Below are positions 3,888-63,462 of a stretch of DNA of 64,000 bases, piece by piece (position 1 is the first letter of the stretch; every line of letters begins with the position of its first letter). The position numbers and the translations under genes are program-made. Location of the stretch: the sequence record MT682711.1, one strand, 5' to 3'. The notes under the pieces are model-generated. The model did no database searches and was not told where the DNA came from. It saw only the letters and a list, made by a program, of their open reading frames with translations. Source of the DNA: Escherichia phage vB_EcoM_FB.

Positions 3888-4125
3888 CCTTGATGCATGA
3901 TTCAGCCATATGAATTAATGTTTCTGGAGTATCATCTACCATTACATTAAAGCTAAATTCCACAGCCCAATCAGTAGCAACATAAACTTTAATAAGCTCG
4001 TTGGTATCGCGAGTGCTCACGGCTTCAAACCAGAACTTAATGATATTCGTTTGGTTATCGTCATCAATAACGATGCAGTCGTGTTCTAGTTCAAGGCCTG
4101 ATTTTTTGAATTCATCTAAAGTCAT
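3862..4125 (-). CDS. hypothetical protein
   Basis: ATG ORF between 46 and 47, stop overlaps gene 47 end. Confidence 0.4.
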   Translation of the reverse strand: MTLDEFKKSGLELEHDCIVIDDDNQTNIIKFWFEAVSTRDTNELIKVYVATDWAVEFSFNVMVDDTPETLIHMAESCIKDAYNDENV

Positions 4126-5144
4126 CGTGTAACCTCATTATAAAGTTGTGCGGCCATAGTCTTAAGGGCTTTAACATCGTCTTCAGTGTGGCCATCAGGA
4201 AGGGCATCGATATAATCATACATCATATCCAAGAGGGACTTAACTTCATCTTCCTCTTCAGAATCATCGATATCAACACTGTTATCTACCTTAGACACAA
4301 TACGTAAAGAGTGAACAACCTTTTCAAGTTCAGATTCGAACTTGGTAAGCCCGTCATCAATTTTATCGACTATAACACGAACCGCAATATTTGTAAAATC
4401 TTTGTAATCGATAGTCGCATTCGGATAATGAATCTTACGATGCCAACAAGTTTCATTGATGATGAAATCCATTTTATGGGTTTCTGTATCGAAAATCCAG
4501 AAGCCACGAGGGTCGTTCTCATCACCTGCAGTCAGGGTCCATGGCGTACCAATATACTTGACGTTTGCTGCATCAGAAATGGTGTGGAAGTGACCAGACC
4601 ATACTTGCTTATACTTCTTAAGGAAATCAGGTTCTAAACCATGTGATTTCATTCCTTTATAGAAATAGAAACCATTTAATTCCCAGTGGCCAATACAGAA
4701 ATCGGCAGTAGTATTTTTGATATGGTCCATGATATCGGTCGTGTTTTCTTCACACATCCATGGAATCAAATCAATTTCTGTACCATCAAAATTAACCGTA
4801 GTAGGTTTCTCAATAACCTTGATATGGTCGTATTTACCCAGAACTTCAGAAGCAGCGTTCGGAGTCAATGTGTTTTTGTAGTGCATATCATGGTTACCAA
4901 CGACCGTATACATGGTAATGCCGTTGGCTTTAAGCAAATCGGAGATTTCGCGAGCGAATTCCATACACTTATGGGTAATTGCTTTACGAACGTCAAAGAT
5001 ATCACCGTATTGAATCCATACAGTAATGCCATTTGCTTTAGAATAATTAATAGCGTCTTGGATACCTTGACGTTGGATATTTTGTACCCACACATCATCG
5101 GCCTTCACTCCAAGGTGCCAGTCACCTGTGTTTAATATTTTCAT
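4122..5144 (-). CDS. 47: recombination endonuclease subunit gp47 (Mre11/SbcD-like phosphoesterase)
   Basis: MKILNTGDWHLG..GNHD metallophosphatase motifs; start set at ATG 5144 (ATGA overlap with upstream small ORF). Confidence 0.9.
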   Translation of the reverse strand: MKILNTGDWHLGVKADDVWVQNIQRQGIQDAINYSKANGITVWIQYGDIFDVRKAITHKCMEFAREISDLLKANGITMYTVVGNHDMHYKNTLTPNAASEVLGKYDHIKVIEKPTTVNFDGTEIDLIPWMCEENTTDIMDHIKNTTADFCIGHWELNGFYFYKGMKSHGLEPDFLKKYKQVWSGHFHTISDAANVKYIGTPWTLTAGDENDPRGFWIFDTETHKMDFIINETCWHRKIHYPNATIDYKDFTNIAVRVIVDKIDDGLTKFESELEKVVHSLRIVSKVDNSVDIDDSEEEDEVKSLLDMMYDYIDALPDGHTEDDVKALKTMAAQLYNEVTR

Positions 5145-5284
5145 AAGCCAAGCGCCGTTATTGCAATGCAAAATAAAATTATTGAAATGAACCCGTCAGG
5201 AGTGGAAAAGAATCCTATCCAACAAGCTCGTGTGAATGTGTAGAATGCCATGAATAACACGACATATCCTAAAAGTAGTTCCAT
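5141..5284 (-). CDS. small hydrophobic protein (47 aa)
   Basis: Not in ORF track (<60 aa); GAGGAG 5 nt upstream of ATG; stop overlaps gene 47 ATG (ATGA). Confidence 0.35.
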   Translation of the reverse strand: MELLLGYVVLFMAFYTFTRACWIGFFSTPDGFISIILFCIAITALGL

Positions 5285-5304
5285 ATGTTCTCCTCAGTTG
5301 GTTC

Positions 5305-5328
5305 ATTTTATCATCCAAATATAAAGCA
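5305..5328 (-). promoter_or_regulatory. MotA-box middle promoter candidate upstream of the gene 47/46 operon
   Basis: Minus strand reads TTTGCTTTA, 11 nt spacer, TAAAAT; fits T4 middle promoter layout. Confidence 0.5.
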
Positions 5329-5347
5329 AAAAAGGAGCCTAAGCTCC
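5327..5347 (-). terminator. rho-independent terminator candidate
   Basis: GGAGC-CTAA-GCTCC hairpin followed on the minus strand by a U-run. Confidence 0.45.
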
Positions 5348-5512
5348 TTTACCAACTAATACACCGTACAGAGGTTCGTGATTAGACCTGAACTTGATAG
5401 GCTTATAGGTAATAGTACCTTCATTTTCTGCTTTAATACGAGCGGCTTCAAATTGAAGTATCATCTCATTTTTGTCAGATTTAATCTTATCAAAATCCAT
5501 CGAATTCGTCAT
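5339..5512 (-). CDS. hypothetical small protein (57 aa)
   Basis: Not in ORF track; AAGAGG 9 nt upstream of ATG; 3-prime end overlaps terminator hairpin. Confidence 0.3.
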   Translation of the reverse strand: MTNSMDFDKIKSDKNEMILQFEAARIKAENEGTITYKPIKFRSNHEPLYGVLVGKGA

Positions 5513-5570
5513 TCATACAACCTCTTAAACTTTTTCGTATTCGTCTTTCATTAGCCGCCTGTCCACGTTA

Positions 5571-5771
5571 TCATCGTTGCCACCATTTCTTAAGTTGATG
5601 AGAATCTACCCAAACCTTGGCTACGGGCTCAATCCGAAAAATTCCATCGGAATACTGGCCGACCATTTTATATTCGGTTTCGGACTGCTTAATACAGATA
5701 TTACCGTATGAGCGAAGTCTAAAGGCGGCTCCAATAAGAAGCCGTTTAAAGGGTTTATTTACTAGGGCCAT
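5571..5771 (-). CDS. hypothetical protein
   Basis: 66-codon ATG ORF co-directional. Confidence 0.3.
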   Translation of the reverse strand: MALVNKPFKRLLIGAAFRLRSYGNICIKQSETEYKMVGQYSDGIFRIEPVAKVWVDSHQLKKWWQR

Positions 5772-6066
5772 TGACGATTTCCCAAATTTGTTTGCGGGTA
5801 GATTCCCACATCAATTGAACAAGTTCATCAGTAACAGGTTGACGGTAAATACCACGTAATTTAATTAAAGCGTACTTATATGCTTCAAAGTTGTTTTCAA
5901 GTACAGCGCCTTGGGCATGGAGATTTAAACGACGGATTTCACGAGCATTCTTCTTAAGAATCTTAGCCGCTTGAGAATTAGCTTCTTTAATATTGTGCTC
6001 TTCTAAACGTTGCTGGGCTTCTTCAATTTGCTCATCAGTCAATTGAGAAATGTCATGGCTTTGCAT
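5755..6066 (-). CDS. hypothetical protein
   Basis: 103-codon ATG ORF in 55-47 interval. Confidence 0.45.
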   Translation of the reverse strand: MQSHDISQLTDEQIEEAQQRLEEHNIKEANSQAAKILKKNAREIRRLNLHAQGAVLENNFEAYKYALIKLRGIYRQPVTDELVQLMWESTRKQIWEIVNGPSK

Positions 6067-6067
6067 A

Positions 6068-6298
6068 TTAATCCTTTGGAGTCAATTCAATAGTGAAGTA
6101 GAAATTAGCGTTCTCAACATGATAACGATAATCTACGTTATTGTCAGGAGAAGTGAATTCAATATTCCTGACGTTAAGTGGGTCAATATCAATAGGAAGG
6201 CCTTTAACATCCCGTAATATCAATTTAATAAAATAAGGGAGTGCTTCGAAGTCTTCCATTCCATCTAAAAGTGGAGTGATATTAATCTGATGTTCCAT
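6068..6298 (-). CDS. hypothetical protein
   Basis: Track ORF starts at GTG 6334; first ATG at 6298 inside gene 55 3-prime end. Confidence 0.35.
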
Positions 6299-6839
6299 AT
6301 AAAAAATCCAGTTCACCAACTTTAGGTTCGGCACTCTTATCAGACCCTGGTGCTTTAGTTAAAGAGGTTTCATACTGAGTCATTTTGTCGTAGATATCTT
6401 GGATAAAGGTTTCATCTGCAATACCTACCATGTCGTCATCATTACTGTCATAGACATTATGGACGAAGTAGCTATATTTCTTTGCCATTTCTTTACGTTC
6501 TTTTTTGATACGCTGAACGAAGGCATTAAAACAAGCCATAGTGATATATGCATGTGGGTTGTCGTATTTTGTTTCGTCGAAATTGTGAAGACCTTTAATC
6601 GAAGCTTCGATTCCATCAGCTATCATTTCCTGCCGCCAAGATTGGGTATATCCTGAGAAGTTGAAACGCTTGCTGAGGCCTTCTGCTATAAGCATAATAG
6701 CCAATCCTATAGTATCATTTTGTCTAATGATTTTATTAGGGTCGGTGTTAGCATATAATTCCTGCTTCCAACTTGTAATAGCTTTAAGAAGCTCCTTGTT
6801 ATTTACATAATTATTTTTTGTTAACTTCACCTGATTCAT
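6282..6839 (-). CDS. 55: late-transcription sigma factor gp55
   Basis: [58 protein letters not shown] matches T4 gp55 as recalled; start at ATG 6839. Confidence 0.9.
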
Positions 6840-7506
6840 AAGCCCTCTTAAACCTATCAACTAGTGGTCTAAAATTATTTATCGTATATGGATAACCTAG
6901 TTCACAGCATTTGCGCCAGAATTTAGAATAACTAGGGCGTCCTTCCTTAATCCAAAGTTCATGGAACTCATCATATAATACATATGTTGGATTTTTAGCA
7001 AACTTGGAATAATTCTCTATAGAGTAATATTCTTTGTTCTTTTTACTTTTGGCCTCTCTAACTTCAGGATTAGCATTATACTCTTTATGGATTCGACGCA
7101 TCATTTCTCGATGCTCTTCATTTTCCCAAGACTTTTTAATAGAGTTGGAAACCCGCTCTTTATATTCAGGGTCCTGCCAGCGTTCGGTAACTTCTTTAGA
7201 CTGTTCTTCAAGTCTTTCCGGTGTCGGAGGAGCATAACCACCTATACCACCAGGTTTCATATTGACGCAGTTAGTTATTTCGGACATGGCATTTTCTACC
7301 AAAAGCTCTTCAAATTCAAAAGCAAGCTCACTTGTCTCAAAATAACATAAGGCCTCTATATTAAAAGAGCATTTCCCTGAGGCCTTAGCATCTTCTACGA
7401 ATTTGCCACTACCGACATACCCGTCATCTATAAATCCGGTGTGTTTACCGAAATAGTAATAAGTATCATTTTCGGATTTTATAGTGGTCATATAACAATA
7501 GTGCAT
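6811..7506 (-). CDS. GIY-YIG-like (Seg-type) homing endonuclease, motif partly degenerate
   Basis: [20 protein letters not shown] and [10 protein letters not shown] parallel the intact Seg-like protein at 44737; overlaps gene 55 start. Confidence 0.5.
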
Positions 7507-7538
7507 AATGATTAATCTTTAATTTAAATAATGAATCT

Positions 7539-7563
7539 ATTATATACCAATTGGCTTAAAGCA
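7539..7563 (-). promoter_or_regulatory. MotA-box middle promoter candidate
   Basis: Minus strand TGCTTTA, 12 nt, TATAAT. Confidence 0.5.
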
Positions 7564-7827
7564 TCAACGGAGTAAGCAATAAGCCTGAAATACGGTTTCA
7601 AGGATTTGTGTGAACTCGGAATAAGAAATTGTATCAGTACATCCATGTTCAGACATATATCCACAAAATTCTTTAAAAAGACCTGGATATTCGCGATGGT
7701 TGTATTTGGAAATATGAGACTTCCATACTAAAGAAGTCTCACCACAAACAAACTCAACATCCATACAGTTATCTATTAAGAAAAATCCGAGACCTTCGTA
7801 GGCGAGGGTGGTGGATATGGGTTTCAT
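7564..7827 (-). CDS. hypothetical protein
   Basis: 87-codon ATG ORF. Confidence 0.4.
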   Translation of the reverse strand: MKPISTTLAYEGLGFFLIDNCMDVEFVCGETSLVWKSHISKYNHREYPGLFKEFCGYMSEHGCTDTISYSEFTQILETVFQAYCLLR

Positions 7828-8090
7828 TGTAGGAATCGAGCTCCTTCCAAGGCATCATCTAGGTTATCGAACTCGTCGACGTAATCAACACCGCCAACCT
7901 CATCTTTTGCATACAGCCAATACTGTTTAAACTCGTATTCAATAATAAAGTGGTCGCCTTCAATTTGAAGAACCCCATCACCATTAAATTGAACTGCATA
8001 ACCTGTAAAGCGGACATCATTCAAGAGTTCTTCTTTCATAGCAATCATTTCCAAGTTTTTATCGTAATTAGAGAGTTTTATTTTAATCAT
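7824..8090 (-). CDS. hypothetical protein
   Basis: 88-codon ATG ORF, 4-nt overlap with neighbour. Confidence 0.4.
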   Translation of the reverse strand: MIKIKLSNYDKNLEMIAMKEELLNDVRFTGYAVQFNGDGVLQIEGDHFIIEYEFKQYWLYAKDEVGGVDYVDEFDNLDDALEGARFLQ

Positions 8091-8416
8091 TTCGCTGCCT
8101 TAACAATTTTCAGGTCAACAAATTTTTTCTTACGTTGGTTTTTCATACGACGGATAGTTTTATCAGAGATTTCACCAGGGGCCCAAGCTTTAGATTCTAC
8201 ACCAAAGGCAGCGACATCGAATTCATCGAGGATATATTGAACCAGAATTTCACGAATACCGTTCTTACCAATTTTCTGGTCTTTAGAGTGCATGATAGGT
8301 AACAGTTCAGCAACCCATTGGTCAAGAACCTGAGGAGTTACAAAACCAGTTTTCATCAGTTCGTTTACTTTATCGAAAGCGAAAGAGTTCAGTACGTTTT
8401 TAATAGCTTGTGACAT
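8087..8416 (-). CDS. hypothetical protein
   Basis: Start moved to ATG 8416 (MSQAIK) with GAGGAA upstream; the longer track ORF would run through the promoter. Confidence 0.45.
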   Translation of the reverse strand: MSQAIKNVLNSFAFDKVNELMKTGFVTPQVLDQWVAELLPIMHSKDQKIGKNGIREILVQYILDEFDVAAFGVESKAWAPGEISDKTIRRMKNQRKKKFVDLKIVKAAK

Positions 8417-8455
8417 AATAATTTCCTCAGTTTTAAAGTTATAATCCGTAGGACC

Positions 8456-8485
8456 ATTATACTCTGGTCCCAAGAGTTTGTAAAC
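8456..8485 (-). promoter_or_regulatory. sigma70-type early promoter candidate
   Basis: Minus strand GTTTACA, 17 nt, TATAAT; spacer and downstream form inverted repeat GGACC/GGTCC. Confidence 0.55.
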
Positions 8486-8685
8486 TATTTTTGACTCATT
8501 GCACCTTTCCAGCCTTCGTACATCATTGCGGCGGAAATTAACAAAGCGCCTGAACAACTTGAATATTTGTGATTCCAAAACCAGTTCAGAAAAACTTCGT
8601 CATCAATACCTTGGGCTATCATATTTTCAAAGAACTGACGACGAGCTTCAGCAATTCGCTGTGATAATTTAGATTCAGGATTCAT
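8485..8685 (-). CDS. hypothetical protein
   Basis: 66-codon ATG ORF. Confidence 0.4.
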   Translation of the reverse strand: MNPESKLSQRIAEARRQFFENMIAQGIDDEVFLNWFWNHKYSSCSGALLISAAMMYEGWKGAMSQK

Positions 8686-8813
8686 ATTTTCCAGTTACCG
8701 TTTTCATCAATAAATTTAATCCAGTCATTTACTGACCACTTAGTTGTATCGCCTTTTGGAGCAGAATTTAAAGTGTATAATCCTTGTTTAAAAAGCATTC
8801 GTTTGATATTCAT
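8682..8813 (-). CDS. hypothetical small protein
   Basis: Start moved to internal ATG 8813 to avoid out-of-frame overlap with upstream gene. Confidence 0.3.
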   Translation of the reverse strand: MNIKRMLFKQGLYTLNSAPKGDTTKWSVNDWIKFIDENGNWKI

Positions 8814-8820
8814 GTTTTCC

Positions 8821-9114
8821 TCAGCTGTAACGATAACACTCGTTTGATTTACGTTTTGCAACACGATGAGAAGTATTATAATCCAAATCATCCTCAACGT
8901 ATACATCTTTTTTCAACTGACGAACTTCTTTACGCAGTTGACGATTCATCTCATTCTTGACTTCTGAATCAACGCCACGCATACGCTTCCATTTGTCTGA
9001 ACGGAAGATATTTTCTTCAACTTGTTCCTGACTTACGCCGTCCGGTGCTTTACGACGTCCGGAATAATAAAAATCTTTTACAGACAATTCTTTACGACGA
9101 ATAGTTTTACCCAT
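8821..9114 (-). CDS. hypothetical basic protein
   Basis: 97-codon ATG ORF, Lys/Arg-rich. Confidence 0.4.
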   Translation of the reverse strand: MGKTIRRKELSVKDFYYSGRRKAPDGVSQEQVEENIFRSDKWKRMRGVDSEVKNEMNRQLRKEVRQLKKDVYVEDDLDYNTSHRVAKRKSNECYRYS

Positions 9115-9116
9115 AG

Positions 9117-9371
9117 TTACCTCAGCAGTTTGTATCCAATAAGATTTTTAATGTATTGGACATCTTTGACATCCAAATCTAACTTAATATCTTTCAGGCG
9201 TTCGGCCAGAGTAAGAAATGATACACGTTTCCAATTCTTAACAGGACAGCAATAAGTTTTCGGGCCATTGGCGATTTCAATATTCTTATCAGTGACGGTG
9301 AGAAAAATCAGGCGCTCATCATCCAGATTAAGGGTGACGACATTTTTCATTGAATGTAATTTCAGGCTCAT
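9117..9371 (-). CDS. hypothetical protein
   Basis: 84-codon ATG ORF. Confidence 0.4.
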   Translation of the reverse strand: MSLKLHSMKNVVTLNLDDERLIFLTVTDKNIEIANGPKTYCCPVKNWKRVSFLTLAERLKDIKLDLDVKDVQYIKNLIGYKLLR

Positions 9372-9550
9372 AATTTGATTTCCTTAGCTATTGAACAAAA
9401 CACGCTACGGTCACATACCATCATTGGAATATTTCTATGGTCCAGTACACGATACCATACGTCTGAATCGCTAGCAGCAATTACACGAACCGCACGCCCA
9501 TTCACCAAATAATACTGGTCGGCTTTAATTTCTTTATCTTGGATAGTCAT
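9368..9550 (-). CDS. hypothetical protein
   Basis: 60-codon ATG ORF with GAGGAG upstream, directly below a promoter cassette. Confidence 0.4.
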   Translation of the reverse strand: MTIQDKEIKADQYYLVNGRAVRVIAASDSDVWYRVLDHRNIPMMVCDRSVFCSIAKEIKL

Positions 9551-9567
9551 AATGTTCTCCTCATGTG

Positions 9568-9608
9568 TTGATAGGATAGACTATAACACGTGAGGAGAGG
9601 AAGTAAAC
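9568..9608 (-). promoter_or_regulatory. early promoter-hairpin cassette (PeSL-like), divergent copy
   Basis: Plus strand TTGATAGGATAGACTATAACACG..AGTAAAC; inverted repeat CTCCTCATGTG/CACGTGAGGAG encloses the core and covers the SD. Confidence 0.45.
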
Positions 9609-9609
9609 A

Positions 9610-9927
9610 CTAATCTTCAATTAAATCTTGGTCATAACCAAGTTCAATCAAAAGCGATTTGAAGGCAGGAATATTTTCTATTTTCTTATTATCGACAAAT
9701 ATGACAGGATAGCGTATCGCTAAGCTCTTGAAGCCTGCACGTTTGGCCAATGATACTATAAGAGGCTTGTCGTATACTGCGCCTGACGGCGTCTGGTTAA
9801 TCACAGGATAGAAAGTATGTAGGATAGAAAGGGAATTTAGGAGCGATAGAACAGCAATGCACCCTGGACAGCGCATGACTGTCTCAGGGATACCGTAAAT
9901 CTCAATTTTAGTTAACTTTTGGTCCAC
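9610..9927 (-). CDS. glutaredoxin/thioredoxin-fold protein (CPGC)
   Basis: KIEIYGIPETVMRCPGC redox motif; first codon is GTG with GGAG upstream. Confidence 0.5.
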   Translation of the reverse strand: MDQKLTKIEIYGIPETVMRCPGCIAVLSLLNSLSILHTFYPVINQTPSGAVYDKPLIVSLAKRAGFKSLAIRYPVIFVDNKKIENIPAFKSLLIELGYDQDLIED

Positions 9928-10204
9928 AGGAAATAACTCCTTGGTAGTCCCAAGTTTTTAGAACTTCGTCTTCATTAGTTCCGTATGGGACGTAAATCTG
10001 GATAAGGAACCCGGTATCATCAAAAGAGAAATAGACAGTAGGTTTAATACCATGAATCTCTGACAGAGCATAGATGTCCTTGAGGTCGTCTTCCTTACCT
10101 TTAAAGAATTCAGGGTTCAGGTCACAGTCATGGAAGTACCAATCATCACCAAACTTGTCCCAAGCGGTCCAATTCAAAGCTACATATTCTTCAAAACGTT
10201 TCAT
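9908..10204 (-). CDS. hypothetical protein
   Basis: 98-codon ATG ORF. Confidence 0.4.
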   Translation of the reverse strand: MKRFEEYVALNWTAWDKFGDDWYFHDCDLNPEFFKGKEDDLKDIYALSEIHGIKPTVYFSFDDTGFLIQIYVPYGTNEDEVLKTWDYQGVISCGPKVN

Positions 10205-10416
10205 TCTTTCACCTTCATCATTTTTGCAATAACACTATGAACAGCCTGGATTCGTTTGTCGAACTCGGACCCTTCAAGACCTTTTTCAGTACTCAGAGCA
10301 CCAATAATCATGAACAGCAATCCAAACGGAATAGCCAGGATTAAAAGGCATACGATAAACAGAACTAATGTAATATTGGCCAAGATATCAGAAACAGCAT
10401 TACGAAATTTGTTCAT
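10201..10416 (-). CDS. small membrane protein
   Basis: Hydrophobic core LVLFIVCLLILAIPFGLLFMIIGAL; track start is GTG, ATG at 10416. Confidence 0.4.
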   Translation of the reverse strand: MNKFRNAVSDILANITLVLFIVCLLILAIPFGLLFMIIGALSTEKGLEGSEFDKRIQAVHSVIAKMMKVKE

Positions 10417-10541
10417 TAAAGAACCCACATGTTAGTTACAACAAATAACCATTGAGCAGGATACTCAACACCCATACGGCGGATAATATCATTCATAGAT
10501 TCAGCTAGAGCATAGAATGTATAGCCATAAAAATTAATCAT
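10416..10541 (-). CDS. hypothetical small protein (41 aa)
   Basis: Not in track; GAGGAA upstream; stop overlaps next ATG. Confidence 0.3.
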   Translation of the reverse strand: MINFYGYTFYALAESMNDIIRRMGVEYPAQWLFVVTNMWVL

Positions 10542-10557
10542 TTAAGCGATTTCCTCA

Positions 10558-11631
10558 TTAAGATTTCAAATAAGTTATATAACTTTCCAACCATTCAATC
10601 ATTTCTGATTTTTCGGTGGCAGTCATAGGATTAACTATATCCTTAAAACTGTTAAGCATTACTTGGGACGTAACTTTTGTTTTTTCGGATTTTACCAATT
10701 CAATAGAGCTAAGTTTTTTAATATGCTCTTCTTTGCTTTCGACTACTAATTTAATAGCTCTTCCGTCTTTAATAGCTTTATTAGCCTGTCCACGGGTCAT
10801 ACCATAAAACTCTTCTAACTCAGAATTGGATAAAAATTTTGTGCCTGAAGAAACATCTTGGAATTTATAACGTTGACGAGAAATATCAGGCGGAAGGCCC
10901 CAGCGGCCTTTAATAAGGTCGAGGGTTCCTTGAAGAAGCCTGGTTAGATGGTTGCTACTTAAATCATTATTACGAGCAAACTCGTTTTGATTTAGAACTT
11001 CCACTGCTTTATTTTCTTCATAGTCCCATATAGTAAATTTAGAGCAATTATAGGTAACAGAATGTTTTTCTGTTCTAGAACGGCCTAATTGCCACCCAGA
11101 TTTAATATACTCAGCAACTTCATCGGGTTTAACATACTTAGTTTTCTGGCCGATTTTGTACATCATGGGCCAGGAAACGTGTTCGTTTCCTTTATCAAAT
11201 TCCATCCATCTTGCAATATCATCTTCGGATAAATCGTCAAAGCAGTTAGGGTTGAAATGACCGCCAATTTGTTTGTTGAGCCACATAGGGTCTCGTAAAA
11301 CATCATTGGCTAATTGCATTTCCATTTCGGCCATAAGGGTTTTACCCCAAGTAGGATACCACCCTACAATAAGGTACTCTTTAGGGCTTATACCCTTTTC
11401 TATCATTGCGTTTACTTCATTAGATGATGATGTATAGGTTTTCCAATCAGATTCCTCAAATCCTTTTTTAGGACCACGCTTAAATGTGCATGGCGCGGCT
11501 TTGATTCGTTTCCAAATCTTTTTAGCGCCAACATATTTTTTACCGTCTTCAAAAGTGATTACGTAGACAAACCCGATATGGTTTTTAATATCGGTTTCTT
11601 CAAATACCGCCCAATGACCAAAATCTTGCAT
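10558..11631 (-). CDS. GIY-YIG homing endonuclease (I-TevI-like N-terminus)
   Basis: GFVYVITFEDGKKYVGAKK GIY-x10-YVG motif near N-terminus; 357 aa. Confidence 0.6.
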   Translation of the reverse strand: MQDFGHWAVFEETDIKNHIGFVYVITFEDGKKYVGAKKIWKRIKAAPCTFKRGPKKGFEESDWKTYTSSSNEVNAMIEKGISPKEYLIVGWYPTWGKTLMAEMEMQLANDVLRDPMWLNKQIGGHFNPNCFDDLSEDDIARWMEFDKGNEHVSWPMMYKIGQKTKYVKPDEVAEYIKSGWQLGRSRTEKHSVTYNCSKFTIWDYEENKAVEVLNQNEFARNNDLSSNHLTRLLQGTLDLIKGRWGLPPDISRQRYKFQDVSSGTKFLSNSELEEFYGMTRGQANKAIKDGRAIKLVVESKEEHIKKLSSIELVKSEKTKVTSQVMLNSFKDIVNPMTATEKSEMIEWLESYITYLKS

Positions 11632-27403: not shown

Positions 27404-27927
27404 TGCATTCCTATCACAAAGAACAGAGGCAAAGGCTTGTCGCCTTGGCACATAAATTTATTAATCATTACCTGGTAAGCTTCATAGAACTTATCCATCG
27501 CTGGAAGGCGCATTGGCTCTTCGATAATAATCAATAATCGAGTAACAGATAGTCCACGATACTTATGGAAATTGTCTTCATCAAGGAAACTGCGCACAGT
27601 ATCATAGACAACAAAACCAGGACCTTCGACTTGGAGATGTGGGTGTGCCTTAGAAACCTGTTTTATTACATTACAAATTTCTCGCGAGCGATGCGAAGAA
27701 CTCGACATAACAATCACATCATTACCCTTGGAAACCCAATCAGCGGCGAACTGGGCAAGGGCACTTGTTTTACCTGTTTGGCGTCCGCCATCAAGTCGAA
27801 GAGTACCAAACTCTTGCATTCTTGAAGCAGGTTCATACCATGTGTATTGGTCTGAGTCTAAACGTTCAATGGCGCGTTCAGCGAAGGCGTGCATTAAGGT
27901 TAGATAAATGGGAGTTAAAAATTTCAT
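27400..27927 (-). CDS. P-loop NTPase-like protein
   Basis: Walker A-like GGRQTGKTSA. Confidence 0.45.
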   Translation of the reverse strand: MKFLTPIYLTLMHAFAERAIERLDSDQYTWYEPASRMQEFGTLRLDGGRQTGKTSALAQFAADWVSKGNDVIVMSSSSHRSREICNVIKQVSKAHPHLQVEGPGFVVYDTVRSFLDEDNFHKYRGLSVTRLLIIIEEPMRLPAMDKFYEAYQVMINKFMCQGDKPLPLFFVIGMQ

Positions 27928-28087
27928 AGTAGTCTCTTAGTGGTGGGGCCATTCCTTGGCACATAATTCGTCCATGTATCCGTATGTAAACCCTTTACCG
28001 CACTTGGGCTCGACCTTATTACAGGTAGGGAAAGGTCCATCACTCAGAGGACGCGACGTTCATGAGGAGAGGGCCGGCTTGCCTTTA

Positions 28088-28387
28088 TTAGAAAGAACCA
28101 GAACCTCTAATTGTGTTCTGGCGACCTTTATTTTCTAATTCGGAGTGGTCGATTTCATATGCTTGTGCTACGCCAAAGGCCTTTTTAACTTTAGCTAAAG
28201 AACCTTTAGATGTAACAATATTAAAAGTATTACCTTTGGTAAAATCAACAAAATCGACTTGTACGCCCTGTTTACCGAGGCTTGCTACAATAGCATCAAC
28301 ATATTCTTGGTCTAAATTGCCTTGAACTCCAATTTGAAATGCTTTAGGAGCTTTGGCTTCTGTGATAAATTCTTGATAAGTTTTCAT
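28088..28387 (-). CDS. internal head protein (IPII-like) with capsid-targeting leader
   Basis: N-terminus MKTYQEFITEA matches T4 internal-protein leader; 99 aa. Confidence 0.6.
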   Translation of the reverse strand: MKTYQEFITEAKAPKAFQIGVQGNLDQEYVDAIVASLGKQGVQVDFVDFTKGNTFNIVTSKGSLAKVKKAFGVAQAYEIDHSELENKGRQNTIRGSGSF

Positions 28388-28430
28388 TGTTATTCCTTAA
28401 GTTGATAGAAGTATTCTATCACGGATTTAA

Positions 28431-28847
28431 TTAAGCGTAAATAGCCTTGCCATAATGTTTGTACCAGGTAGGACGCTGTGCAATTTTTTCATCCAAACGG
28501 GTCTGAGATATAGCAATAGAAGCTTCGTGTGGAGTATAGTCACCACGGAATTCCTGAGGAATGTCACTAATGTCCTGGACAGTAGTATCCTTGATATTAA
28601 AACCACGTTTTAAACATTCGGCTATAAGCTCAATTTGTCGCTTACGTAAAAATTCAAGCTTATCGTAAAAGAATGTAACATGGCCTGTGCCAAGGATAAA
28701 AGTAGGACTGATTTTGAAATCACGGACACGTTTACCATTAGCAACATGCTTACGAACTGCACCGAAAACACGTGGTAATTCACGATATTCAGCCATTAAG
28801 TGTTGGTCAGCCAATTCAGATACTAAGGTAAGGTTGATACGAGTCAT
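28431..28847 (-). CDS. denV: endonuclease V (pyrimidine-dimer DNA glycosylase) DenV
   Basis: 138 aa, [31 protein letters not shown].. almost identical to T4 endonuclease V as recalled. Confidence 0.9.
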
Positions 28848-28863
28848 TTTTAATCTCCTGTAG

Positions 28864-28903
28864 TTGATAGGTCTATAGTATCATGACTACAGGAGATGTA
28901 AAC
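28864..28903 (-). promoter_or_regulatory. early promoter-hairpin cassette (PeSL-like)
   Basis: TTGATAGGTCTATAGTATCA..TGTAAAC; inverted repeat CTCCTGTAG/CTACAGGAG. Confidence 0.5.
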
Positions 28904-28927
28904 AACTTTTATCAAGTATAGGCTTTA

Positions 28928-29524
28928 TTAATTACCACGGGCTGCATTAGCAACGGCGTAAGCGTACTGAATATTAGCGTCTTTAAACGTACCTTTAGAG
29001 GTATCTATCTCTGCCTTAAAGCCGCCTTTAACCATAACATCAGCAAATTCTTTACGGAAAGTCATTGCATCAAGACCTTTCCATGCGGATTTATGCTTGG
29101 CAAATTCAAGACCGGCGAAGTTAACTGCTTTAGCCAATTTATTATCAATAGTCCATTTACCTGCTTTAGGTACAAACACCGGGCCTTTCTGTTTAGAGAA
29201 CAGTTTTAAATTCCAGCGACGAAGGTCACCGTCAGCTTTAACAAAAGCTGCGTCCAAGTTACTAGCAACAACATCTTGGATATGGGCAAATTTAAGTCCA
29301 TCAGCTTCAATATTTAGGTCGTTACGCCAGCGAAGTCCTTCCCAGGCGAAAGCTTTAAAGTCGGAAGCTTTTGTAGCCAAGTACCGTTCAATAGGAGCTG
29401 TTTTAGCGTCAAAACCGTTTCCTGGGTTGTCAACGCCGTTTCCTTTGTAAGTCCACTCATCTTTATTAATGCCTTGGACCTTTCCTACAGAAGCTTCGGC
29501 GATAAATTCTTTATACGTTTTCAT
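28928..29524 (-). CDS. internal head protein (IPIII-like) with capsid-targeting leader
   Basis: N-terminus MKTYKEFIAEA; 198 aa. Confidence 0.6.
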   Translation of the reverse strand: MKTYKEFIAEASVGKVQGINKDEWTYKGNGVDNPGNGFDAKTAPIERYLATKASDFKAFAWEGLRWRNDLNIEADGLKFAHIQDVVASNLDAAFVKADGDLRRWNLKLFSKQKGPVFVPKAGKWTIDNKLAKAVNFAGLEFAKHKSAWKGLDAMTFRKEFADVMVKGGFKAEIDTSKGTFKDANIQYAYAVANAARGN

Positions 29525-29562
29525 ACGGGTTCCTTAAAGGTAAATATTTTAATTGGTCTGTT

Positions 29563-29606
29563 CAAGTAACTGTAGATATACTATCACAATTCTAGGAGAT
29601 GTAAAC
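29563..29606 (-). promoter_or_regulatory. early promoter candidate, divergent cassette
   Basis: TGTAAAC present but core replaced by ..GTAGATATACTATCA.. Confidence 0.35.
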
Positions 29607-30005
29607 TTATTTATGGGTCTTCATCCAATTCTTGAACAAAGCCGCGACGTCTTTCTCTTTAACGTTCAGTTTAATGTCCAACATTTTACCACCCGCTGCT
29701 CTGGTTTGGCGAATCTTAGCAGTACCGGTTTCGCCATTCCACTCAACATAATACTGTCCAGTGTTCATTGCAATACCATCACCGTAGTCTTCATTTTTAG
29801 AAGTGGTGAATGCTAGCTTCATAGTCTTAGATACACGAGCCTGCATGCCTGTCTGAAGGGCATTACGAACGCGAATAACCTGAGGAGTGGCCTGGGTCAA
29901 GTTCTCATTCAGTTCTTCAGTGAACTCTTCAGATTCAAACATCGCCAAAAGTTCTTTAGATGCAGGAATTACATTCTCTGCGATAAATTCATTATAAGTT
30001 TTCAT
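29607..30005 (-). CDS. additional internal-protein-like gene with capsid-targeting leader
   Basis: N-terminus [11 protein letters not shown]; 132 aa. Confidence 0.55.
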
Positions 30006-30486
30006 ATGCTTTCCAAGTACCTGTTTTAAATGTTGAAATCACGCGCTTAGCACGATTAGGAGTTTGTTTATACCAACGGGATTGAGCCAGGTTAACTGCC
30101 GCATCGTTCCAACGTTTCTGTTGGAGCATACGTAAAGAGTTAGTGAACCCTGCTACGCCTGCTTCACCCATTTGGAAGACCATGTTAATTAAAGCACAAC
30201 GACGAACTTCGTCCAGTACATCATAAACAGGTTTCAATTTAGGATTACGCAGAATAGCTCTACGAGCATTTTCAACCGATCGATTAAAGAGTTGCTCGGC
30301 TTCAGCCATAGTAATACGACCATTACAAACTCGACCCATAAGCTTATCAAGTTCAGCGCGAGCAACGTCTTTAGATGGGTTCTTGGTAATCAACTGACCA
30401 ATGCCAATAGTCCAATAACCTTCGGTGTCTTTATAAAGATTTAAATCAAGACCTTCGTCTTGACGTAACATATCAAAAATATCCAT
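29992..30486 (-). CDS. e: lysozyme e (endolysin)
   Basis: 164 aa; Glu11, Asp20, Thr26 conserved; [31 protein letters not shown] as in T4 lysozyme. Confidence 0.9.
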
Positions 30487-30489
30487 AAT

Positions 30490-30515
30490 ACCTCCGAGTA
30501 TAGGAGGTATTTATA
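30490..30515 (-). promoter_or_regulatory. late promoter TATAAATA plus SD-sequestering hairpin for gene e
   Basis: Minus strand TATAAATA at 30515..30508, then ACCTCC-loop-GGAGGT hairpin whose downstream arm is the SD. Confidence 0.6.
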
Positions 30516-30965
30516 TCAAAAGAGCGAACTCAAAACTTTATACATCGACGGGCCCATGACATATTCCCATTGCGGACGTTTAATCAAAGCGAACGCATCG
30601 AATTCAGGAATCGTACGGCCGTCAGGGAACGTATGGTAAGCTGTACATTTGCAATCCTTGAACTGCTCGTGTTCCACAGGCACTGTATATAAGAACAGAT
30701 GTAGATTCTTATTGCTTGAATATTTGAACTCACCTAGGTCTTTCAGGAATGCAGGATCGTATGCTGTGAATCCAATCTCTTCTTCGGTTTCGCGCATTGC
30801 CGCTTGAATAGGCTCTTCGCCTGGTTCGACATGACCTTTAGGAATGTCCCATTTATGACGCATGTTCTCTGGATTACGAGAGCCTGTTACACGACCCATG
30901 ACCAGTTCTTTATCAACGGTCATGAACAAAATACCTGCCGATAATTCCTTAGCTTTCTTACCCAT
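30516..30965 (-). CDS. nudE: Nudix hydrolase NudE
   Basis: Nudix box GHVEPGEEPIQAAMRETEEEIG; start at ATG 30965. Confidence 0.75.
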   Translation of the reverse strand: MGKKAKELSAGILFMTVDKELVMGRVTGSRNPENMRHKWDIPKGHVEPGEEPIQAAMRETEEEIGFTAYDPAFLKDLGEFKYSSNKNLHLFLYTVPVEHEQFKDCKCTAYHTFPDGRTIPEFDAFALIKRPQWEYVMGPSMYKVLSSLF

Positions 30966-38778: not shown

Positions 38779-38854
38779 TGGTCGAGGCAGTAGGGATCGA
38801 ACCTACGACCTAGGACTTAGAAGGTCCTTGCTCTTCCTTCTGAGCTATGCCCCG
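38779..38854 (-). tRNA. tRNA-Arg (anticodon UCU), CCA encoded
   Basis: 76 nt cloverleaf folded by hand: 7-bp acceptor with one G-U, GG in D-loop, anticodon loop CUUCUAA, T-loop TTCGATC. Confidence 0.8.
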
Positions 38855-39567: not shown

Positions 39568-39638
39568 TGGCCCTGGGTGGAATCGAACCACCATCCAGCG
39601 ATTATGAGTCGCTCGCTTGACCGTCCAGCTACAGGGCC
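39568..39638 (-). tRNA. tRNA with CAU anticodon (Met or Ile2 type), CCA not encoded
   Basis: 71 nt: perfect 7-bp acceptor GGCCCTG/CAGGGCC, anticodon loop CTCATAA, T-arm GGTGG-TTCGATT-CCACC. Confidence 0.7.
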
Positions 39639-40326: not shown

Positions 40327-40367
40327 TTGATAGGGCTATAGTATCATCACTAAAGCCCGTTGTAAAC
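40327..40367 (-). promoter_or_regulatory. early promoter-hairpin cassette (PeSL-like)
   Basis: TTGATAGGGCTATAGTATCA..TGTAAAC. Confidence 0.5.
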
Positions 40368-40369
40368 AA

Positions 40370-40630
40370 TTATTTTAGATAAATTGCATATTTTTTATAG
40401 CCAGCTGTCTCGTGGCGCAACCCTTTGTCATTAGCAAAGCGTTCAATATTATTAATTTGGTTTTGGTCGAGTTCTGAAATATCAAATACAAAAAAGTTTC
40501 TCTTATTGCCTAAAGTTACGTGATTAGTCAAATCGATGTTATAGAGATGATTTATATTATCAATCACGGTCTTAACAGATTTGTTAATTTTTACTTCCTC
40601 ATTAAGAATAAATTCTTGATAAGTTTTCAT
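40370..40630 (-). CDS. internal-protein-like gene (IPI position) with capsid-targeting leader
   Basis: N-terminus MKTYQEFILNE; 86 aa. Confidence 0.55.
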   Translation of the reverse strand: MKTYQEFILNEEVKINKSVKTVIDNINHLYNIDLTNHVTLGNKRNFFVFDISELDQNQINNIERFANDKGLRHETAGYKKYAIYLK

Positions 40631-40656: not shown

Positions 40657-40696
40657 TTGATAGGTCTATAGTATCATATTTATAGACCTTGTAAAC
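40657..40696 (-). promoter_or_regulatory. early promoter-hairpin cassette (PeSL-like)
   Basis: TTGATAGGTCTATAGTATCATATTTATAGACC..TGTAAAC. Confidence 0.5.
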
Positions 40697-62817: not shown

Positions 62818-63462
62818 ATGAACTATAATAAGATTTACAAATCTTTAATAAATAAGGGCCTCGAAAGAGGTCTAAATAAAAAGAAGGTAGGGTTTTATAC
62901 AGAGAAGCATCATATTGTCCCTAAATCCATGGGTGGTAGTGAAGACAAATCTAATTTTGTTCTTTTAACCGCTAGAGAACATTTTGTAGCTCATCAATTA
63001 TTGTATAAAATACACAAAAACCGTTCTATGGCCCATGCTATGATTAATATGTGTGCTGATAGCACAGGTAATAGGGTTAATTCTAAGTTATTAGATTGGC
63101 ACCGTAAAGCTAAGGCTAGGGCCCAAAGCGAGATGGTTTCAGGTGAAAACCATCCTATGTATAACAAGAAACATAAAAAAGAAACATTAGAAAAAATGAG
63201 ATTGGCCAAATTAGGCGTCCCATGGACTGAAGAAGTTAAGGAATCTAGAAGAGAAGAATTACTTAAAACCTCTGAACATGCTAGGACTTTCATCGACTAT
63301 AAATCTGGCGGAGAAAATTCAGCCGCAAAGAAAATATGTATAGAAGGTATAGTATTTGATTATATGGAAGAAGCGGTTCCTTGGTGTAATATATCAAGAA
63401 GAACTCTTTTAAATAGAATCAAATCTTCAGACCCTAAATGGAGGGATTGGAATTATGTCTAA
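62818..63462 (+). CDS. HNH homing endonuclease (Mob-like)
   Basis: [32 protein letters not shown]; starts 3 nt after gene 13 stop, overlaps gene 14 start. Confidence 0.75.

Follow-up and report, generated by a model that had tools for sequence, protein, structure and literature searches.

Four probable internal-protein genes at both T4-type loci of a Dhakavirus, with a candidate further protein family downstream of the lysozyme gene

The internal proteins (IPs) of T4-type phages reach the host before any phage gene is expressed, and because their delivery precedes phage gene expression they can be regarded as a first-line counter-defence. To our knowledge, only three IPs have known targets, and all three are from T4. 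Internal proteins of T4 carry a capsid-targeting sequence (CTS), MKTYQEFIAE (PMC8442874). Mutagenesis of IPIII showed that the first ten residues suffice for packaging, that residues 4 and 7 control targeting, and that residues 8 and 10 control processing (summarised in PMC9026906). Cleavage by gp21, the prohead protease, takes place behind the glutamate of an I/L-x-E motif (PMC9026906, PMC12991175).

That these proteins act against restriction was demonstrated for T4 IPI*, which inhibits GmrSD of E. coli CT596 (PMC3012670), and in 2025 T4 Ip2 and Ip3 were each found to inhibit a GmrSD variant of its own, and no cross-protection was seen (PMC12373910). The target of Ip3, established for the T4 protein only, is the two-gene GmrS1/GmrSD2 system of E. 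coli ECOR17 (PMC12373910). The authors of that study suggest that every accessory protein encoded at the two Ip loci has a variant of the GmrSD family as its target. Since ten other ip genes assayed against new GmrSD systems yielded no new inhibitory pairs (PMC12373910), GmrSD inhibition by all IPs is so far a suggestion. The two IP loci are hypervariable and associated with PeSL elements, and more than 30 IP variants have been reported (PMC2839356); PeSLs themselves are known elements of T4-type phages, and their presence at both IP loci has been pointed out (PMC2839356, PMC4122927).

Here, we have analysed a window of 64,000 nucleotides from Escherichia phage vB_EcoM_FB (MT682711.1) and compared its leader-bearing genes with these systems. 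Judged by its sequence, the window belongs to a Dhakavirus, a JS98/QL01-like T4-type phage (Straboviridae, Tevenvirinae); over the e-denV stretch (27900..30600), its identity is 99.1% to Escherichia phage QL01 and 92-97% to JS98, JS10, MX01 and other Dhakavirus phages. The four ORFs of interest, designated here by their lengths in residues, were placed correctly by an earlier sequence-only reading, which left their strand unsaid; the ORF listing puts all of them on the minus strand. Comparison of gene order with T4 and with relatives of the phage shows that they occupy both T4 IP loci, e-denV and 57B-tRNA region. Transcription runs from right to left, and in this direction the first locus reads e, w132 (29607..30005), w198 (28928..29524), denV (28431..28847), w99 (28088..28387) and vs.8. 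The earlier description of w132, w198 and w99 as clustered is right in that all three belong to the e-denV region, but denV interrupts them between w198 and w99. The fourth gene, w86 (40370..40630), directly follows 57B, 57A and gene 1 and precedes the tRNA region, which is the position of ipI in T4. The window ends at gene 13, so that gene 21 lies outside it. In QL01, the nearest relative, whose 99.1% identity to the window refers to the searched e-denV stretch, gp21 and the gp22 scaffold are 89% and 77% identical to those of T4.

The four proteins share an N-terminal leader. Exactly four ORFs in the window start with MKTY.EFI, and in a six-frame scan the string MKTY occurs four times, each time opening one of these proteins. 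The mean count in 200 shuffles was 0.0 for MKTY.EFI and 0.3 for MKTY; as no shuffle returned MKTY.EFI against four occurrences observed, its recurrence is not a matter of chance. The leader was previously read as MKTYxEFI(A/T/L)E throughout, which is true of w99 (MKTYQEFITE), w198 (MKTYKEFIAE) and w132, while in w86 (MKTYQEFILNE) the glutamate comes one position later. Its identification as the T4 CTS is supported, as the leaders match MKTYQEFIAE (PMC8442874) and keep the residues that are important in IPIII (PMC9026906). The targeting aromatics Y4 and F7 are present in all four proteins, as is I8, and each leader ends in an (I/L)-x-E motif, namely ITE10 in w99, IAE10 in w198 and w132, and LNE11 in w86. 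The predicted mature forms are small and basic (pI 8.9-9.5, with 10.0 for w132 if cut at E34) and resemble T4 IPI*, IPII and IPIII.

Beyond the leader, the proteins have little in common. BLASTP finds only the first 8-25 residues as a common stretch, and when the family profiles of w132, w86 and w99, the three that were compared, are aligned with hhalign after removal of the leaders, the probability is at most 0.1%, in agreement with the earlier claim that the bodies are unrelated. The alignment to T4 IPI, IPII and IPIII that had been proposed as a check gives a divided answer: w198 is IPIII (87%), and w99, w132 and w86 share the leader only. For these three, alignments to IPII that are better than E = 0.2 span just the first 12-17 residues, and of the longer alignments to IPI none reaches significance (E >= 0.44). 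Scans of the four proteins against Pfam and NCBIfam returned nothing over threshold. Every one of the four nonetheless matches a PHROG family with E = 7e-43 or better and has full-length homologues in many phages.

Much of this is already familiar. The phenomenon has been known since 1994, w198 is simply IPIII, and three of the four genes encode internal proteins that already have a name, so the finding is largely an ordinary one. What we add is modest: a probable extra IP family (w132), a candidate two-step propeptide, and a deletion mediated by the leaders. w132 is the sole part that is absent from the databases as an internal protein, and the established picture of the T4 internal proteins is left unchanged.

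Orthology of w198 to T4 IPIII (Ip3) is clear from the alignment, with 87% identity over the full length (E = 2e-129). Its PHROG (5341) is labelled 'internal virion protein', and the counterparts in QL01 and JS10 are annotated as IpIII. Like T4 IPIII, w198 has a near-identical CTS (Q5 is replaced by K) with a single I-A-E10 site and lies downstream of e and upstream of denV. It differs from the T4 protein in five inserted residues close to where the mature part begins, and in that w132 here stands between e and w198. A T4-type early promoter, GTTTAC-N-TGATAGTAT, occupies 29578..29606 on the minus strand, between w132 and the IPIII gene, and aligns with those that precede ipII and ipIII in T4. 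w99, which lies 3' of denV, matches PHROG 2667, 'internal head protein' (E = 7e-43), and has 21 homologue clusters, several of which are called internal head protein; the leader is all that it has in common with T4 IPI, IPII and IPIII. An early-promoter-like site with a short stem-loop lies upstream of it (28403..28441, minus strand). The GC-richer spacer of 160 nt that follows w99 gave no Rfam match and no significant fold.

As w132 is the protein for which an internal-protein role is new, it is worth examining what its family looks like. PHROG 15461, to which it belongs, is labelled 'unknown function', and all 49 phage records with a family member annotate it as 'hypothetical protein'. The leader is kept in each of the 18 family members that were retrieved. 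It is also found in the homologues of Serratia phage 4S (44% identical by tblastn, 57% by protein alignment) and Erwinia phage Cronus (40% and 51%), and a metagenomic variant of 194 residues is still leader-bearing, starting MKSFDQYIME. Family members lie between e and denV in Dhakavirus, Marfavirus, Serratia 4S, Erwinia Cronus and a metagenomic T4-like contig. They are always in this IP locus, in most cases overlapping e at its 3' end or adjoining it there, and the order e-then-w132 is repeated in Marfa, Serratia 4S, Erwinia Cronus and the metagenomic contig. Two slots can be distinguished. In the window, QL01 and UGJNEcP3, the w132 gene follows e and precedes ipIII, and in JS10 it lies between ipIII and denV. 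The latter slot is taken by ipII in T4 and UGJNEcP3 and contains no gene in the window, where an early promoter with a 17-nt inverted repeat of the PeSL type is found in its place (28848..28903, minus strand). In JS10, the w132 homologue is preceded by the ribosome-binding region ATTTACCTTTAAAGGA...ATG, as are other ip genes. Judging from these positions, the w132 gene behaves as a cassette.

The lysozyme gene e (29992..30486, minus strand), identified from the ORF listing and the annotation of relatives, overlaps the start of w132 with its 3' end by 14 nt. Because of this overlap, co-transcription and translational coupling of w132 with e are probable. A T4 late-promoter consensus, TATAAATA, is located at 30508..30515 on the minus strand, 22 nt upstream of e, and its position there suggests that w132 would be expressed late, at the time of prohead assembly. 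This promoter is the likely source of late transcripts over e and w132 and possibly over genes further downstream. Taken together, the kept leader, the position in the IP locus, the cassette behaviour and the late promoter argue that w132 is very probably a further internal protein.

The N-terminal part of w132 suggests how it may be processed. Residues 11-34 are acidic, with seven D/E against one K/R, and are variable or absent in distant homologues; the structure prediction gives residues 1-34 a pLDDT below 50 and folds residues 35-132 into a predicted alpha/beta core. L32-N33-E34 is invariant in an 11-sequence alignment, and the Serratia 4S homologue reads I-N-E. A cut at E34 would leave 98 residues with a pI of 10.0 and a net charge of +8, compared with +2 if the protein were cut only at E10, and the charge and pI after removal of residues 1-34 are similar to those of T4 IPII and IPIII. 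Since the spacer is acidic, the L-N-E at 34 is invariant and the product of such a cut is basic, we propose that w132 may be made as a two-step propeptide, in which a CTS is followed by an acidic spacer and a second cut takes place at L-N-E.

In the metagenomic variant of 194 residues, L-T-E is seen just ahead of the matching domain when the sequence is judged by eye.

No relative of w132 with a known function could be detected, as sequence and fold searches of the PDB were uninformative or relied on low-confidence models. A marginal PDB sequence match to the small domain of M.HhaI (E = 0.011) is taken as a chance one because neither fold search backed it. Searching a whole library with the w132 profile returned only seven proteins. 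Two of these seven, long bacterial repeat proteins, were set aside as homologues, the match being limited to a hairpin motif of 35 residues. The helix-sheet-helix layout predicted for the w132 core is loosely like the published description of T4 IPI* (PMC3012670).

How would such proteins work? We think there is a good chance that all four ORFs are T4-type internal proteins which enter the prohead by their CTS, are cut by gp21, are injected and likely inhibit modification-dependent restriction of the GmrSD-like type IV kind; packaging, cleavage, injection and anti-restriction activity in this phage are what we infer from the comparison. During prohead assembly, the CTS would dock each protein on the gp22 scaffolding core. 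gp21 would then cut after the glutamate of (I/L)-x-E, which is E10 in w99, w198 and w132, E11 in w86 and possibly E34 in w132, and the leader would exit the head. The small basic mature protein would remain with the packaged DNA and be injected along with it into the next host, where it would most probably bind and block a nuclease that attacks modified (hydroxymethylcytosine-type) phage DNA, each IP being matched to one variant of a diverse nuclease family. The shared leader, the ribosome-binding region and the flanking PeSLs could serve as recombination points at which cargo is gained, lost or moved.

The earlier suggestion that injected T4 proteins include an anti-restriction factor has since become more specific, with Ip1, Ip2 and Ip3 each inhibiting a different GmrSD type IV enzyme (PMC12373910), and given these targets the anti-defence idea appears stronger than the sequence-only reading knew. 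The genes described here resemble those of IPI*, the inhibitor of GmrSD-CT596, and of IPII, the inhibitor of GmrSD-ECOR21/BrxU, in their leader logic, their small basic mature forms and their two loci. By orthology, w198 would most likely block ECOR17-type GmrS1/GmrSD2. The dhakaviruses possess a hydroxymethylcytosine (hmC) pathway (PMC12115623) and are absent from the groups with known hmC glucosyl- or arabinosyl-transferases (PMC8056088). Because of this absence, the host nucleases that matter here may be other than the ones restricting T4.

It is also conceivable, though we hold it to be a tentative idea more apt to fail than to stand, that the w132 family is an unrecognised injected protein of Escherichia, Klebsiella, Serratia and Erwinia T4-like phages, made as a two-step propeptide, that inhibits a host defence yet to be paired with any IP. 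As dhakaviruses lack the known hmC sugar transferases, such a defence could be one that acts on DNA with non-glycosylated hmC. The literature on this phage group yielded neither virion proteomics nor N-terminal sequencing or genetics for the four proteins; a literature search for the leader strings returned nothing relevant, and the supplements of PMC12373910 do not include these sequences.

Could w132 instead stay out of the virion? Its leader might have arisen incidentally when ip leaders recombined, and the protein might act late in the infected cell, possibly in connection with e. Such a role would account for the 14-nt overlap with e in a gene that has no promoter of its own, for the recurrence of the e-then-w132 order in Marfa, Serratia 4S, Erwinia Cronus and the metagenomic contig, and for the 'hypothetical' label in 49 of 49 records. 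We nevertheless regard it as improbable. A functionless tag should decay, whereas the leader persists in all 18 members and in homologues of ~40-57% identity (the range depending on the measure), among them the 194-residue variant that starts MKSFDQYIME. In JS10, moreover, ipIII separates the w132 homologue from e and the ribosome-binding region is that of other ip genes, and loading into the prohead would itself need late co-expression with e. That the shared N-termini are a coincidence, or the ORFs spurious, is a notion to which we give practically no credit: the small size of the ORFs is the sole point in its favour, and it is refuted by the absence of a match in 200 shuffles against four in the window, by the full-length homologues and by PHROG matches at E = 7e-43 or better.

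If w132 and its companions are indeed packaged, the question becomes what they do in the virion and after injection. Internal proteins could be mainly structural or physical agents that neutralise charge or aid packaging or ejection, rather than specific anti-defence proteins. The predicted mature forms are all small and basic (pI 8.9-10.0), T4 DNA embeds about 1000 IP molecules, and IP lysines touch DNA phosphates (PMC3012670), all of which would suit a physical task. We think it quite improbable as the main role, however, as the T4 IPs are non-essential (PMC8442874, PMC12373910), all three of them have specific GmrSD targets (PMC12373910), and unrelated cargo families are swapped among close relatives, which is more in keeping with an arms race than with a conserved physical role. 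The physical and the anti-defence roles are not mutually exclusive.

Many of the phages that carry the w132 family are candidates for phage therapy. Flagging the family as a probable IP would fill an annotation gap in about 50 phage genomes, and it adds one orphan effector for screening against type IV restriction enzymes.

The sequences around the genes bear on how these cassettes move. The window contains eight PeSL-type promoters against 0.04 expected, all on the minus strand, and the stem-loops were confirmed at the ip genes. Upstream of the Ip9-family gene w86, a PeSL (40662..40696, minus strand) combines an early promoter with a perfect 9-nt stem, AGGTCTATA/TATAGACCT, and has the late promoter TATAAATA embedded in it (40677..40684, minus strand). 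Since a second PeSL-type promoter (40338..40367, minus strand) adjoins the gene immediately on its downstream side, the Ip9 cassette is flanked on both sides. As in the mobile PeSL cassettes of Arbiol et al. (2010) and Comeau et al. (2014), the motifs here flank ip cassettes whose content varies among close relatives; in this phage, however, one deletion has its end-point inside coding leaders rather than in PeSLs.

That deletion concerns the ipI locus. Ip9 of RB15 and the polymorphism of the ipI locus were reportedly described by Repoila et al. in 1994. w86 (PHROG 7673) is 79% identical to Ip9 of RB15 and 80-91% identical to other members, including proteins named internal head protein, and like Ip9 of RB15 it lies at the same locus, downstream of 57B. 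It differs in that the neighbouring ip8, which is present in QL01, is absent, and in that its leader lacks AESI, so that I8 is fused to L-N-E. QL01 and most dhakaviruses have ip8 and ip9 in tandem, and ip9 stands alone in the window and in Salmonella phage ABTNLS3. DNA alignment with QL01 and ABTNLS3 shows that the body of ip8 was removed by a deletion with its ends in both leaders, by which the promoter and first codons of ip8 were joined to the body of ip9. Because the ends of the deletion sit in the two leaders, we argue from the alignment that the shared leader, besides being a protein signal, is also a substrate of recombination. It offers a clean example of a shared tag that doubles as a recombination handle.

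The leader of w86 has undergone a further in-frame loss of 12 nt between the near-repeats GAATTTAT and GAATCTAT. As a result, AESI is gone, the canonical E10 with it, and I8-L9-N10-E11 is created; all four residues are retained in the other aligned full-length Ip9 members. With I-x-E10 gone, processing of w86 would depend on the fused L-N-E11, a point that counts against the internal-protein reading proposed above.

A relative of w132, the 132-aa candidate internal protein encoded on the minus strand at 29607..30005, was found in a divergent T4-like contig from the Logan assembly of SRR14654591. The gene of this relative (4001..4585 of the contig) sits between lysozyme e and denV, and its 194-aa product starts with MKSFDQYIME, which resembles the capsid-targeting leader MKTYQEFIAE of T4 internal proteins. 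The protein has an additional N-terminal region of ~90 residues, which is followed by the core conserved with w132. A profile search weakly matched residues ~64-97 of w132 (29700..29800) with hairpin units that are repeated in two large surface-type proteins of bacteria (E ~1e-5), and the same stretch had a marginal phmmer match to residues 189-275 of M.HhaI. We judged these matches to be motif-level resemblance, and homology of w132 to the bacterial surface-type proteins or to M.HhaI was rejected.

The T4-type early promoter motif GTTTAC-N(12-20)-TGRTAVTAT occurs eight times in the window, compared with 0.04 copies expected by chance, and all copies are on the minus strand (17019, 21735, 26379, 28875, 29578, 38020, 40338 and 40668). 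Those near the internal protein genes carry stem-loops of the type found in PeSL, the early promoter and stem-loop cassettes of T4-type phages. The interval between the IPIII gene and denV (28848..28927) is an empty slot in the window, with a promoter/stem-loop as its sole content, whereas it is filled by ipII or its orthologue in T4 and UGJNEcP3, and by a homologue of w132 in JS10. At the T4 ipI position, the leader of the Ip9 gene (40598..40630, the start of the 86-aa ORF) has an in-frame deletion of 12 nt relative to the phages QL01 and ABTNLS3, which is absent from the other aligned full-length members of the Ip9 family. Relative to QL01, the neighbouring gene ip8 is deleted in the window, and the end-points of this deletion fall inside the two leaders.

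Upstream of lysozyme e, at 30486..30515 on the minus strand, the late promoter TATAAATA is directly followed by an inverted repeat, ACCTCC...GGAGGT, that overlaps the ribosome-binding site of e and resembles the T4 hairpin blocking translation of early e transcripts. Between vs.8 and the gene of w99, the 99-aa internal head protein, lies a non-coding spacer of 160 nt (27928..28087) with a G+C content of ~49%, compared with 39% in the window. Searching Rfam with this spacer returned no match, and its folding was no better than that of shuffled sequences (z = 0.2). In QL01, the counterparts of these two genes are annotated with a gap of the same length between them.

In T4, a-gt adjoins genes 46/47; beside these genes in the window (5171..10558), no ORF of alpha-glucosyltransferase length (about 400 aa) was found among ORFs of at least 140 aa. 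The missing ORF agrees with the published absence of dhakaviruses from the groups with known hmC glucosyl- or arabinosyl-transferases (PMC8056088).

The window probably contains two homing endonuclease genes, namely a SegE-like GIY-YIG gene (10558..11631, minus strand; Pfam E = 5e-34) and a candidate 214-aa ORF after gene 13 (62818..63462, plus strand), in which an H-N-H-like motif was recognized by eye. The counterpart of the T4 tRNA region has only two tRNA genes, Arg-tct (38779..38854) and Met-cat (39568..39638), whereas T4 carries eight.
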